This document shows positions 95-9,652 of a stretch of 64,000 bases of DNA, piece after piece; the stretch's first letter is position 1, and the number at the start of each line of letters is the position of its first letter. This stretch comes from a virus. Taxonomy: Duplodnaviria; Caudoviricetes. Made by a program: the position numbers and the translations under genes. Where the stretch lies: positions 32,001 to 96,000 of IMG/VR virus record IMGVR_UViG_3300010167_000010. One strand, written 5' to 3'. The notes below the pieces were generated by a model. The model saw nothing but the letters and a program-made list of their open reading frames with translations. It did no database searches and was not told the origin of the DNA.

Positions 95-165
95 GTCTCC
101 GTTGTTCAGTAGAGAGCAAATGGTCTGCAAAATCATTAGAGTTGGTGCAAGTCCAACCGGGGACT
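95..165 (+). tRNA. tRNA-Cys(GCA)
   Basis: Acceptor GTCTCCG/CGGGGAC, anticodon arm ATGGT-CTGCAAA-ATCAT, T arm GTTGG-TGCAAGT-CCAAC, U73; no CCA. Confidence 0.85.
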
Positions 166-166
166 A

Positions 167-1381
167 ATGATGAATATTGAAAAATTAGAATCAAGATTAG
201 AAGATACTCATAAAACAGTTGCTGTATTAAGAGGAATGCTTGAAGAGTCTTTAATTCAAGAAGTATGTAAATTTTTAATTACTATTGGAAAAACTGAAGC
301 AACAAAAATTTGTGCTATGTTAGATGAACAAACTTTAGAAACTATAACGTTTGAAATAGCTAGACGAGAATATCTAACTGAATCAGAATGTCAAAATATT
401 TTAGAAATGTTTTGTAATTTATATGATAATGATAATTTTATAGTTTTAGGTGGAATAAATTATGCCAAAGATTTAATGACAGAAACTGTTGGCGAACAAA
501 AAGCTATAGATATATTAAATAGAATGTCATCATCATTACAAATTAAACCATTCGACTATATAAGAAGATGTCATCCTATAGATTTATTAAATATAATTCA
601 ACAAGAACATCCTCAAGTAATAGCTTTAATTTTATCTTATTTAGAACCAAATAAAGCATCTATAATGTTACAAAATTTACCAGCTGAACTAAGATCAGAT
701 ATTACCAGAAGAATAGCTTGCATGGACAGTATAGAACCAGAAACTTTACGAGAAGTTGAAAGGGTTTTAGAAAAAAAATTATCTACATTATCTGCTGAAG
801 ATTATTGGAGAAATGCCGGCGGATTGCCAGCGGTTGTAGAAATATTAAATTTGGTTGATAGAGAAGTTGAAAAACAAGTTATAGAAAATTTAGAAGATGA
901 AGACCCAGAATTAGCTGAAGAAATTAAAAAACGAATGTTTATATTTGAAGATATTGTTATGTTAAATGATCATTATATACAAAAAATATTACGAAATGTA
1001 GATAGTCAAGAGTTAGCTAAAGCATTATTTAATGTAGATTCAGAAGTACAAAATAAAATATTTAGAAATTTTTCTAAACGAGCTGAAGCAATGTTAAAAG
1101 AAGATATGATTTATATGGGTCCATTAAAATTAAAAGATATCGAAGAAGCTCAACAAAAAATAGTTTCTATAATTCGTAAATTGGAAGAAGACGGTGAAAT
1201 TTCACTTAATAGATGTGGTGAAAATGAAATGATTTCTCCTAATCTAAATATAGATGAAAAAGTTCAAGAACAAATGAAAAAAGAACATGAAGAAAATAAA
1301 TTGATATTAAATAGCGAAGAAAAACATAATTTTTTTTGGAAGCTAATTCTTAGAAAAATAAAAAGGTTAACTAATGGGTAA
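167..1381 (+). CDS. fliG: Flagellar motor switch protein FliG (spirochete-type)
   Basis: EHPQ motif, GG hinge, MFIFED motif, SKRA..LKED..MGP torque helix region. Confidence 0.95.
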
Positions 1382-2771
1382 ATACGTATTAGATCAAGAT
1401 GATATTGATGATTTAGTAGAAAATGACGATTGGAAAGAATCTTTTAGTTTTAAAAAAGTTAAGGGAAAACATAAAATGACTGAAGTATTAAGTGCAAAAG
1501 AAATAGACGAATTATTAAAAGCTATTAATGCTGGAGAAACTGATCCAGAAGATTTAAAACCGGCGTGTAATGCTAGAAAAATAAAAATATACGATTTTAA
1601 GCGTCCTGATAAATTTTCCAAAGAACAAATTAGAACTGTTTCAATAATGCATGAAACATTTGCTAGATTAAGTACTACTTTTTTATCGGCCAGATTAAGA
1701 CAATTAGTTCATGTTCATGTTGCTTCAGTTGATCAATTAACTTATGAAGAATTTATTCGTTCTGTACCAACACCTACTACAATGGCAATTATAAACATGG
1801 ATCCATTAAAGGGTAGTGCAATATTAGAAATTGATCCTGCAGTAACATTTGCTTTTATAGATAGATTATGTGGTGGAACTGGAGAAGGTACAAAATCTCA
1901 ACACGAATTAACTGATATTGAAATGAGTTTAATGGAAGGAATGATTGTACGATTATTGGGAAACATAAGAGAAGCCTGGTCACAAATTATAGATTTACGA
2001 CCACGATTAGGACAAGTAGATACTAATCCACAATTTTGTATGATAGTACCACCAACTGAAATGACAGTTCTTGTTACATTTGAAGTAAAGGTTGGTGATG
2101 TAGAAGGAATGTTTAATTTATGTATTCCACATATTTTATTAGAACCTATAATGGATAGAATGTCAGCTGCATATTGGTATGGGAGTGGTTGGAATAATAC
2201 TGTCCCTAAAACTTTTAATCAAGAAAAATTAGATAATATAGATGTTTCTTTAAGAGCTGAATATTTTAAAACTACTATGTCGTTATCACAATTAAGTTAT
2301 TTATTAAATAATAATGGAATAATATTAAATGAAGATCATGAAGAAAATACTGGAAAATTATATATAAATAATTTATATATTGGGGAATTTAAAGAAATAG
2401 ACGTTTTAAGAGAACATAAGAAAATTAAAATAACAAAAATAACAAATATTATGGAGAAAAATTATATGAATGAAAAAAATAATATCGACTTTTCAGGTGG
2501 AAATTTATCTGAAATTAAGGTCCAAATAATTACTGAATTAGGAAGAACTTCTAGAACTTTAAAAGAAATTTCTAGTTTTGGAGAAGGTACAATCTTAGAA
2601 TTAGATAAGTTAGCTGGAGAACCTGTCGATATATTTGCTAATAATGTTTTAATAGCAAAAGGTGAAGTTGTAGTAATAGATGAAAATTTTGGTGTCAGAA
2701 TAACTGATGTTCTTAATCAAAAAGAAAAGGAAGAGGGGCCTTGCAAAGGAGATGAAGCTCAAAACAGCTAG
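1374..2771 (+). CDS. fliM: FliM-FliN fusion flagellar switch protein
   Basis: [41 protein letters not shown] (FliM); C-terminal SpoA domain [27 protein letters not shown] (FliN/FliY-C). Confidence 0.93.
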
Positions 2772-2919: not shown

Positions 2920-2969
2920 TTGTATAGTTTTATTTTTAGTTTTTTGGATTAAAATAAGTTGGTAATTTT

Positions 2970-3054
2970 GCTCAGGTGGTGGAATTTAGAAGACACCCTA
3001 GCCCGAGGAGCTAGTGCCCGAAAGGGCGTGCAAGTGCAAGTCTTGTCCTGAGTA
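2970..3054 (+). tRNA. tRNA-Leu(GAG), C33 variant
   Basis: GCTCAGG/CCTGAGT acceptor, CTAGC-CCGAGGA-GCTAG, long variable arm GCCC-GAAA-GGGC. Confidence 0.85.
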
Positions 3055-3096
3055 ATATGAATGTCGATATGGAAATGTACAATCCATGAAGTTCAT

Positions 3097-3161: not shown

Positions 3162-3236
3162 GCCATCGTAGCCCAACGGCAGAGGCACTACGCTTAGAAC
3201 GTAGAAAGGTGTCGAGTTCAAATCTCACCGATGGTA
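3162..3236 (+). tRNA. tRNA-Leu(TAG), short variable region
   Basis: GCCATCG/CGATGGT, CTACG-CTTAGAA-CGTAG, TTCAAAT T loop with a bulged T stem. Confidence 0.8.
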
Positions 3237-3319
3237 CTTATACAATAAATATTATAGAGGTAGATTAAAATTACTTTAAGTGTCCTCTACTAAATAGTAA
3301 TAAAGTGAAGATAAATATT

Positions 3320-4662: not shown

Positions 4663-5298
4663 ATGATAGGTATTTATTTAATTACAAATTTAACTAATAA
4701 AAAACGATATGTTGGTAAATCTAAAAATATTGAAAATAGATGGAAACAACATAAAAAATTAAATGATGGTTATAGACCGTCTTACTTACAAAGTGCCTTT
4801 TTAAAAGAAGGGATAGAAAATTTTTCTTTTGAAGTTTGGGAAGAATGTATTTTAGAAAAATTAAATGAAAGAGAAAAATTTTGGATTAAAGAATTAGAAA
4901 CGAGAAATCCCGAATTTGGATATAATTTAACAAAGGGTGGTGATGGGGGAGATACTTTTTATATTCAATCTGAAGAAAAACAAAATGAATTAAGAAAAAT
5001 TTTTAGTGAAAATAGTAAAAAATATAATACTATTAAATATCTTCAAACAGATAGAGCTGAACAATCAAGAAAACCTCATAGAAAAAAATTAGGCCAAAAT
5101 GCTAAAGGTAAAACATGGCAATGGAATGAAGAAAAAAGAAAAAATTATATACCTTCAAATAAAGGAAAATTAATGAATAATGAACAAAAAGAAAAACAAA
5201 AACAATATCATTGGTTTAATAATGGGATTATTCAAATAATGTCAATAAAATGTCCGGAAAATTTTAATTCAGGAATGTTAAAAAGAAAAACTAACTAA
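4663..5298 (+). CDS. GIY-YIG homing endonuclease (Seg-like)
   Basis: GIYLITN..YVGKS..NRWKQH, ERE..WI, GYN motifs; basic C-terminal DNA-binding region. Confidence 0.9.
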   Translation: MIGIYLITNLTNKKRYVGKSKNIENRWKQHKKLNDGYRPSYLQSAFLKEGIENFSFEVWEECILEKLNEREKFWIKELETRNPEFGYNLTKGGDGGDTFYIQSEEKQNELRKIFSENSKKYNTIKYLQTDRAEQSRKPHRKKLGQNAKGKTWQWNEEKRKNYIPSNKGKLMNNEQKEKQKQYHWFNNGIIQIMSIKCPENFNSGMLKRKTN

Positions 5299-8797: not shown

Positions 8798-9652
8798 ATG
8801 TTTGTAACTTTAAAAGATATGGAAGATATATATCGAAAATATACTGGAAATAGAAATTGTGTAATGGTAGAAATAACTCAAGAATGTAATTTTAATTGTC
8901 ATTTTTGTAATTATAATCATGAAGGAAAAGGAAAAATTTTAGATTTAAAATTATTTGAAGATTTCATGAGACCTTTAGAAGGTCAAGATATTGCAATAGT
9001 TTTATTTGGTGGAGAACCGACATTAGAAATGGAAATGTGTAAACAAACTATTGAAATGTGTAAAAAATATGGTTTTTTAACTTCAATGTTTTCTAATGGT
9101 TGGTGGGGGAAAAATGAAAAAGTACTAAAAGAAATAGAAGAAATAAATTTTGATTATATTTATATATCTACAGATAGACTTCATGCTGAATTTGTATCTG
9201 CAGATATTATAGAAAATATCTTTAGATATTTTGAACATAATCAAAATACTAGAATTTTAACTATTTCAGTATTTGATACTCAAGAAGGTGAAGCACAAAA
9301 TAAAGATTTAGATTTTTTACGGAATTTAAATTTTGATGGTGCAAAAATGGCTTTAGCATTAAATAATTATTTATTTGAAGAAGATATTCCACACGAATAT
9401 TGCATGACCGATGGTATATTATTTGAATATAATGGAATATTAAAACATTCTTGTCCATTAGGTGCACATGCTTGTACAATTGGACACGCAAGAGATTTAG
9501 ATGGTAAAGCAGTTTATAAAAATTTTATTAGACCTATAGAAAATAGACTAATGAAAAAATTATTAAATATTAATGATCATACTGAAATATCTAAAATAGA
9601 TTATGAGAAAGTAGATAAATTATTAAGACCAATTAATGCAGCATTGTGTTAA
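8798..9652 (+). CDS. Radical SAM protein
   Basis: CNFNCHFC (CxxxCxxC), GGEP, SNGWW motifs. Confidence 0.9.
   Translation: MFVTLKDMEDIYRKYTGNRNCVMVEITQECNFNCHFCNYNHEGKGKILDLKLFEDFMRPLEGQDIAIVLFGGEPTLEMEMCKQTIEMCKKYGFLTSMFSNGWWGKNEKVLKEIEEINFDYIYISTDRLHAEFVSADIIENIFRYFEHNQNTRILTISVFDTQEGEAQNKDLDFLRNLNFDGAKMALALNNYLFEEDIPHEYCMTDGILFEYNGILKHSCPLGAHACTIGHARDLDGKAVYKNFIRPIENRLMKKLLNINDHTEISKIDYEKVDKLLRPINAALC

Follow-up and report, generated by a model that had tools for sequence, protein, structure and literature searches.

Flagellar switch proteins in a jumbo phage: FliG and a FliM::FliN fusion of Treponema type encoded within a tRNA island

In treponemes, the flagellar switch complex comprises the proteins FliG2, FliM and FliY/FliN. 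The N-terminal domain of canonical FliG (FliG_N) serves for docking on the membrane and supramembrane (MS) ring of the motor, and the EHPQ motif of its middle domain (FliG_M) contacts FliM. Flagella are known to serve phages as receptors, and repression of host motility by phages via regulators is likewise known; for a virus to encode rotor and switch proteins itself would, if this holds true, be a different route to the control of host behaviour. Here, we describe such a gene pair, fliG and a fliM::fliN fusion gene, which is contained in a tRNA island of a phage genome. The stretch of DNA that was analysed (“the window”, 64,000 bases) corresponds to bases 32,001-96,000 of one 329,018-bp IMG/VR record (IMGVR_UViG_3300010167_000010), and feature coordinates count within the window unless a contig or locus is named. 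The protein families involved are textbook ones and host-derived phage genes are of a known kind; the phage-borne switch pair as such is undescribed in the literature searched. Queries for phage-borne fliG/fliM returned unrelated papers only, a description of phage-encoded FliG or FliM was not found, and comparative surveys of jumbo phages make no mention of flagella, which agrees with a preliminary description of the window, made from its letters only, whose author was unaware of a phage-borne C-ring (cytoplasmic ring) module.

Among the described systems, a FliM-FliN fusion mutant of Salmonella, which is reportedly motile, carries the SpoA domain of FliM followed by that of FliN in one chain. 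The same order is present in the engineered FliM(SPOA)::FliN constructs (4YXB, 4YXC). In the FliY proteins of Thermotoga and Bacillus, a CheY-binding peptide occupies the N-terminus, the middle domain has the CheC/FliM fold and a FliN domain forms the C-terminal part. At the joint where the MS ring meets the C-ring, the C-tail of FliF co-folds with FliG_N (PMC7355467), and Borrelia, with FliG1 and FliG2, provides an example of a second FliG that fulfils a specialised role in one cell (PMC7225975).

With the Treponema switch complex, the phage proteins have in common the families and folds, the EHPQ, GGxG and MFxF motifs and the CheY-binding peptide; however, they are virus-encoded and lie away from any flagellar operon, the FliM protein is fused to a FliN domain and possesses a second CheY-binding motif, and the FliG protein is distinguished by a diverged FliG_N, by N- and C-terminal extensions and by a much faster evolution. 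The phage fusion follows the domain order of the Salmonella mutant and the engineered constructs but, unlike the latter, it is natural and full-length, with a degenerate first SpoA domain. A second FliG with a specialised role in one cell would be reminiscent of Borrelia, yet the FliGs of the phages and of the bacterial “orphan” pairs introduced below fall into the FliG2 clade and not with FliG1. As is the case for phage auxiliary genes, the pair is host-derived, kept in a lytic-type phage genome, phage-like in composition and conserved in related phages; in contrast to these, its products are structural parts of a motility machine instead of metabolic enzymes. Altogether, the phage proteins present themselves as rearranged, not plain, copies of switch-ring proteins, and the family offers natural versions of motor variants that have so far been engineered, i.e., FliM::FliN, FliF-tail::FliG, a FliG devoid of its N domain and CheY-binding peptides in tandem. 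The pair and the tRNA genes that enclose it are arranged as follows:

95..165, plus strand: tRNA-Cys (GCA), detected by ARAGORN
167..1381, plus strand: fliG, FliG2-type, 404 amino acids (aa; P0001), assigned by Pfam, TIGR00207 and tree
1374..2771, plus strand: fliM::fliN fusion gene, 465 aa (P0002), assigned by Pfam FliM, TIGR01397, TIGR02480 and alignment
2969..3055 and 3162..3237, plus strand: two tRNA-Leu (GAG, TAG) that close the interval, detected by ARAGORN

In the genome, 19 tRNAs form a run to which the island around the pair belongs. The start codon of fliG lies one base past the 3' end of tRNA-Cys, and the sole Shine-Dalgarno-like sequence for fliG, GGGGA as read directly from the sequence, is situated within the acceptor arm of this tRNA; hence, tRNA-Cys processing and fliG translation may be linked. 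The start of fliM::fliN and the end of fliG have 8 nt in common (ATGGGTAA), both reading frames are intact, and the two genes would constitute a translationally coupled pair. Their GC content amounts to 26-29%, with GC contents at third codon positions (GC3) of 0.11 and 0.13, compared with 0.11-0.22 in the other genes of the window and 0.40-0.54 in canonical host fliG/fliM. The base composition of the pair is, thus, phage-like and not host-like, and a GC3 at phage level, far below that of the host, argues for a long residence in phage genomes. The preliminary description had already recorded a full-length FliG, a FliM with a fused FliN domain, flanking phage tRNAs, a phage-like AT content and a resemblance to Treponema proteins, all of which are borne out by the present data; its statement that other flagellar genes are lacking is valid for the window, where no further one was found, but not for the genome as a whole. 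Amid the tRNA genes beside the pair, a GIY-YIG homing endonuclease (window 4663-5298) and a radical SAM protein (8798-9652) are encoded as well.

The decisive rearrangement concerns P0002. This protein is recognised by the FliM models of Pfam (PF02154, 253 bits) and TIGRFAM (TIGR01397, 304 bits; cut-off 220), and its residues 35-300 share 70-76% identity with canonical Treponema FliM. In an alignment of these proteins (A1), canonical Treponema FliM (343 aa) stops after its own SpoA domain, whereas P0002 and its relatives run on for about 100 residues, which include a FliN domain. The following parts can be distinguished, with AF2 denoting AlphaFold2 models, pLDDT their predicted local distance difference test and pN/pS the ratio of non-synonymous to synonymous differences per site relative to a sister phage:

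1386..1415, plus strand: extra upstream CheY-binding-like motif, residues 5-14, from alignment; AF2 helix at residues 8-16
1479..1529, plus strand: canonical N-terminal CheY-P-binding peptide of FliM, residues 36-52, from alignment with canonical Treponema FliM; AF2 helix 41-55
1590..2162, plus strand: FliM middle domain with GGxG, residues 73-263; Pfam 253 bits, AF2 pLDDT >95, pN/pS 0.29
2220..2441, plus strand: degenerate C-terminal SpoA domain of FliM itself, residues 283-356; weak FliMN_C match (E 0.002), pN/pS 0.95
2505..2714, plus strand: added FliN-type SpoA domain, residues 378-447; PF01052 91.8 bits, TIGR02480 90.1 bits

In the AF2 model of P0002 (mean pLDDT 80), two short N-terminal helices are followed by the FliM middle domain and by two beta domains in series. 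The middle domain, in which G167, G168 and G170 of the GGxG motif are invariant, was matched by Foldseek to solved FliM middle domains with target template modelling (TM) scores of 0.94-0.97 and root-mean-square deviations of 1.0-1.5 Å. A family search of the open reading frame yielded two SpoA matches, of which that at residues 283-356 is weak and that at residues 378-447 strong. The first of these regions shows no alignable identity to the SpoA domain of host FliM; nevertheless, it is modelled as a beta domain (residues 290-360, pLDDT 82-88). The second (residues 378-449) exceeds the cut-off of the model for stand-alone FliN, TIGR02480 (90.1 bits vs. 84.05), in spite of being fused to FliM and not forming a small protein of its own, and is 58-60% identical to the FliN domain that closes host FliY. 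The C-terminal half of the P0002 model matches the engineered FliM(SPOA)::FliN 4YXB with an E-value of 1.9e-12. The possibility that “FliM plus FliN” is a misread normal FliM was ruled out by the alignment, the two SpoA matches, the AF2 model and the Foldseek result together, and P0002 is a true FliM::FliN fusion.

Two other identities were considered for P0002 and rejected. The protein has the N-terminal CheY-binding peptide, CheC/FliM-fold middle and C-terminal FliN domain of FliY, but its middle domain is that of FliM, it has two SpoA domains, and the FliY model NF005995 remains below its cut-off (130 bits vs. 218); the injectisome model TIGR02551 (SctQ) reaches 49.8 bits against a cut-off of 100.8. 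A weak CheX/CheC-like part of host FliY is missing from the phage fusion. In Treponema operons, fliY follows fliM, and the simplest origin of the fusion would be the capture of fliM-fliY and subsequent joining by a deletion. A doubled CheY-binding motif as in P0002 is present in 6 of the 88 long-form FliM proteins, i.e., those carrying the additional FliN domain; the three among these six for which the genomic context was examined (this phage, P0003 and P0005/P0006) are all located on large phage contigs.

FliG of the window scores 371 bits against the fliG model TIGR00207 (cut-off 227), its three Pfam domains FliG_N, FliG_M and FliG_C exceed their cut-offs with 94, 95 and 143 bits, respectively, and its identity to canonical Treponema FliG is 64-66%. 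It is composed of the following parts:

167..247, plus strand: N-terminal extension, residues 1-27, from alignment A4; AF2 pLDDT <50
257..553, plus strand: FliG_N, residues 31-129, Pfam E 7.6e-27; strongly diverged
584..799, plus strand: FliG_M, residues 140-211, Pfam; EHPQ motif; pN/pS 0.31
884..1207, plus strand: FliG_C, residues 240-347, Pfam 143 bits; MFxF kept; pN/pS 0.34
1238..1378, plus strand: C-terminal extension, residues 358-404, from alignment; pN/pS ~1, low AF2 pLDDT

EHPQ in FliG_M and MFIF in FliG_C align with canonical FliG, and, of the charged torque-helix residues, whose side is turned to the stator, KRA...KED are retained. At a position which we take to be that of E. coli K264, the FliGs of the window and of three relatives have Phe where Lys is expected, and Lys replaces Arg in the window FliG at the presumed equivalent of E. 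coli R297. In FliG_N, many residues that are invariant in canonical FliG are exchanged. The C-terminal extension has no counterpart in canonical FliG and is longer in relatives and in the bacterial orphans. With a mean pLDDT of 64.5, the FliG model from AF2 is moderate in quality, and residues 1-26 are not placed with confidence. The idea that the window FliG itself starts with a FliF-tail mimic was rejected (−1.3 bits with a hidden Markov model (HMM) of the FliF tail; 898 of 1000 shuffles score as high), and a modelled complex of FliG_N (residues 26-135) with the host FliF C-tail scored 0.16 against a mark of 0.32, which permits no verdict and is not evidence either way.

The position of residues 1-27 is, in three related phages, that of a FliF C-tail-like segment:

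L010:11366-12580: phage FliG extended by transmembrane segment 2 (TM2), linker and C-tail of FliF
L135:7362-8969: phage FliG with the same extension
L137:7375-8637: phage FliG with the same extension

These FliGs begin with a hydrophobic helix, which is followed by a linker and the FliF C-tail-like segment; they obtain 20-23 bits with the FliF-tail HMM, a score reached by none of 1000 shuffles, and their extension is collinear with host FliF from TM2 to the C-terminus. They appear to be natural fusions of a truncated FliF with FliG and are probably membrane-anchored. While they resemble FliF-FliG fusions in opening with the TM2-linker-C-tail segment of host FliF, they hold only the last ~100 FliF residues, without the ring-building domains. 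As fliF ends three bases ahead of fliG in host operons, its 3' end has evidently been captured by the phage fliG gene. The closest relatives of the window (L007, P0123) display a weak FliF-tail signal (7.7-7.8 bits; reached by one of 1000 shuffles), and in other relatives and in the bacterial orphans FliG_N is wholly gone. Docking on the host MS ring seems dispensable across the family.

Phylogenetically, the phage and orphan FliGs join canonical FliG2 as opposed to FliG1 (support 100/100), remaining outside the tight canonical clade (94/86), and their branch lengths are 0.3-2.0 compared with 0.02-0.09 for canonical FliG. The long forms of FliM all cluster (SH-aLRT, i.e., Shimodaira-Hasegawa-like approximate likelihood ratio test, 88) beside canonical FliM of termite-gut Treponema, with long branches; the three bacterial orphans make up one clade within an unresolved radiation. 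Overall, the evolutionary rate of the phage proteins is several-fold to about 30-fold above that of the canonical ones. Among themselves, the FliN domains fused in phages and orphans share 68-73% identity, compared with 52-60% shared with host FliY, and this greater mutual closeness fits a single origin of the FliM::FliN fusion. Judging from these comparisons, the pair is derived from a Treponema-like flagellar operon, with fliG (FliG2), fliM and the FliN end of fliY as its sources.

Selection acts differently on the individual domains. Relative to the sister phage, pN/pS is 0.29-0.35 in the N-terminus and middle domain of FliM, in FliN, FliG_M and FliG_C, and 0.87-1.0 in FliG_N (0.87), in FliM's own SpoA domain and in the FliG tail, and although these values are crude, owing to nearly saturated synonymous sites and to the AT bias of both genomes, the contrast between the domains is still clear. 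The surfaces that would bind FliM, FliG, FliN partners and the stator are under purifying selection, and the anchoring domains, FliG_N and FliM's own SpoA domain, evolve almost freely.

The remainder of the genome contributes further motility-related genes. Outside the window lie genes for a flagellin, for a FliN that stands alone and for a protein carrying a CheY-binding peptide (G000:C1:306492-307346, 310402-310668 and 320902-321282, respectively). The flagellin is FlaB-type and intact, with both flagellin domains; the stand-alone FliN (P0243) measures 88 aa; and in the third protein (P0242, 126 aa), a host-type FliM CheY-binding peptide, TEVLSQEEIDQLLTAING, precedes a coiled coil. A hybrid sensor kinase (G000:C1:164185-166302, minus strand) comprises dCache, HisKA, HATPase and receiver domains, the latter being the only receiver domain in the genome; genes for CheX, MotA or a stand-alone CheY were not found in the phage genome.

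The pair is shared by related phages, and these viruses probably alter the swimming and steering of infected cells. With a probability of roughly 0.55, we consider the pair to be a modifier or decoy of the host switch complex and of signalling by phosphorylated CheY (CheY-P), and not a like-for-like replacement. FliG and FliM::FliN would be produced during infection and joined to each other by binding of EHPQ in FliG_M to GGxG in the FliM middle domain; in concert with the phage's lone FliN, they would form switch-complex units. Such units would engage host CheY-P via the two tandem FliM peptides, with P0242 supplying a separate peptide, and would also engage host stators and possibly FliH/FliI. 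They might then sequester CheY-P, perhaps together with stators or export ATPase complexes, or give rise to altered switch units, so that the way in which the periplasmic flagellar motors switch and are controlled by chemotaxis would be changed or disabled. This reading is preferred because of the doubled CheY-binding peptide, the additional P0242, the loss of the phosphatase-like part of FliY, the loosening of the anchor domains and the rapid evolution; it is also favoured by relatives which either lack FliG_N or bring along their own FliF TM2 and tail, and by Phe at the presumed K264 equivalent. Another purpose raised in the preliminary description, blocking superinfection by flagellum-dependent phages, is unlikely, since spirochaete flagella are periplasmic (PMC7225975).

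Several observations weigh against a modifier or decoy. All three C-ring components plus an intact flagellin are encoded, and the motifs for FliG-FliM contact persist along with most charges of the torque helix, both of which would suit a plain replacement equally well; the FliF-tail feature of the relatives is undetectable in the window FliG; the pN/pS values are subject to the saturation and AT bias already mentioned; and the host is assigned from protein similarity alone.

A more far-reaching version, to be regarded as tentative, is that phages of termite-gut spirochaetes possess a self-contained mini-rotor, in which FliM::FliN would carry extra CheY-P peptides in all lineages and, in some, a FliF TM2 and tail belonging to FliG itself would provide its anchor. 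Assembled apart from the host MS ring, it could capture CheY-P, stators and export ATPase complexes and, in this way, give the virus control over steering and propulsion; the orphan pairs of Treponema would then be domesticated phage genes.

Somewhat unlikely, in our estimation, is a supply of spare parts, by which phage FliG, FliM, FliN and flagellin would keep the motors running after host expression stops, to the benefit that the infected cell stays in its gut niche until lysis. All C-ring components and a FlaB-type flagellin being encoded, contact motifs and torque-helix charges being retained, and the core domains being under purifying selection would be expected of functional substitutes; however, the MS-ring docking domain evolves near-freely and is gone in relatives, the proteins change several-fold to ~30-fold faster than canonical ones, and replacement needs neither a doubled CheY peptide nor a separate peptide protein nor fusions.

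A use in protein export is improbable. According to this explanation, the FliM-FliN platform would bind FliH/FliI and redirect or block flagellar type III export, e.g., for exporting the phage flagellin or for halting costly flagellar synthesis. It draws on the structural match of the C-terminal half to engineered FliM(SPOA)::FliN, which the depositors of 4YXB and 4YXC solved with FliH, and on the flagellin and lone FliN genes, but it leaves the FliG gene and the extra CheY-binding peptides unexplained, and genes for FliH, FliI or the export gate did not turn up, with no search having been aimed at them.

Regarding the distribution of the pair, long-form FliM proteins are plentiful in metagenomes. 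A scan of the viral collection with P0002 alone gave nothing and an alignment query was required; a scan of the genome collection returned mostly canonical fliM, hence the long-form count stems from a family-wide search. Besides the window, 12 contexts were examined, nine of which are phage-like and three bacterial chromosome. The nine phage-like contigs show three synteny types and originate mostly from termite-gut metagenomes. On a 328-kb phage contig, the pair occupies a syntenic site flanked by an HNH gene and a DUF2828 gene, its FliG and FliM being only ~59% identical to the window proteins. On contigs of 183 and 174 kb, genes for a primase and a phosphoesterase adjoin the pair, and immediately upstream of the pair the 174-kb contig (P0006) encodes a receiver-domain protein, a CheX protein and a protein with a kinase ATPase, which suggests a larger chemotaxis set. 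On contigs of 90, 52 and 65 kb, DnaJ and T4-type portal genes lie nearby, and a 27-kb contig (L136:3840-7973) carries, next to a D5-type primase gene, two long-form FliM genes in tandem, with a FliG fragment after each. A search of viral databases for fliG/fliM, as proposed in the preliminary description, retrieved IMG/VR contigs of 90 kb and 39 kb with the pair, which is rare within the viral collection searched. On the viral contig L010, fliM and fliN are still separate genes, and FliN is 82-84% identical to host FliY. Metagenomic one-chain fusions of FliG with long-form FliM are also on record (P0076, 775 aa; P0121, 811 aa). A 305,833-bp huge phage from IMG/VR with 42% GC contains genes for a truncated FliM-like and a 155-aa FliN-like product (L013:10010-11148), which may represent an independent capture, given that they are only ~32% identical to the window protein.

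That the pair is a functionless passenger recently captured from the host, a contamination or an assembly chimera is very improbable and largely refuted: the location in a tRNA island beside a homing endonuclease, i.e., an insertion-prone region, is compatible with it, but the composition is fully phage-like, the two frames are coupled and uninterrupted, purifying selection acts on the core domains, and the pair is syntenic in the phage with ~59% identical proteins and present in many others. The same FliG and FliM proteins are, moreover, recorded on three contigs, the longest of 329,032 bp, and the chimeric assembly and the pseudogenisation which the preliminary description had named as risks both appear unlikely.

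Orphan fliG-fliM::fliN pairs in bacteria occur in 3 of 218 representative genomes of the family, the others having only canonical fliM and fliY. They are located at three different housekeeping loci in genomes of termite-gut Treponema:

L006:8658-11269: bacterial orphan pair
L008:8951-11242: bacterial orphan pair
L111:6480-9058: bacterial orphan pair

Their surroundings comprise, in one case, ffh, gpsA and genes for a class A penicillin-binding protein and RNase II, in another, fab and acc genes, and, in the last, a third site. The GC content of the orphan pairs is below that of their own chromosomes and of the canonical paralogues, which hints that they were imported from an AT-rich source, for instance a phage. 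The orphan FliGs have no recognisable N domain and possess a ~90-aa C-terminal extension which is common to some phage FliGs. Some termite-gut treponemes would harbour an unstudied second pair of switch proteins.

The element that carries the window appears to be a complete, very diverged, myovirus-like jumbo phage. The record of 329,018 bp has a GC content of 28.5%, bears a direct terminal repeat of 124 bp and contains 22 tRNA genes; the collection lists it as a virus that has terminal repeats and is 100% complete by CheckV. This identity is based on the terminal repeat and the completeness together with the match of an 878-aa protein to baseplate wedge PHROGs (7e-17) and weak matches of a 749-aa protein to T4-type portal models in two libraries, of a 904-aa protein to tail sheath and of a 750-aa protein to two large-terminase PHROGs. 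The Pfam models Terminase_6C, Terminase_6N, Phage_capsid and Gp23 gave 0 matches across the genome and the candidate capsid gene has no PHROG match; the structural genes look very diverged. Several source samples share identifiers with published metagenome-assembled genomes of termite-gut Treponema, which, along with the protein similarity, makes a termite-gut treponeme the probable host. Further genes of the window include those for a TROVE/DUF2828-type RNA-binding protein, a tRNA nucleotidyltransferase, a helicase and a methyltransferase; RNA repair and tRNA enzymes are among its products.

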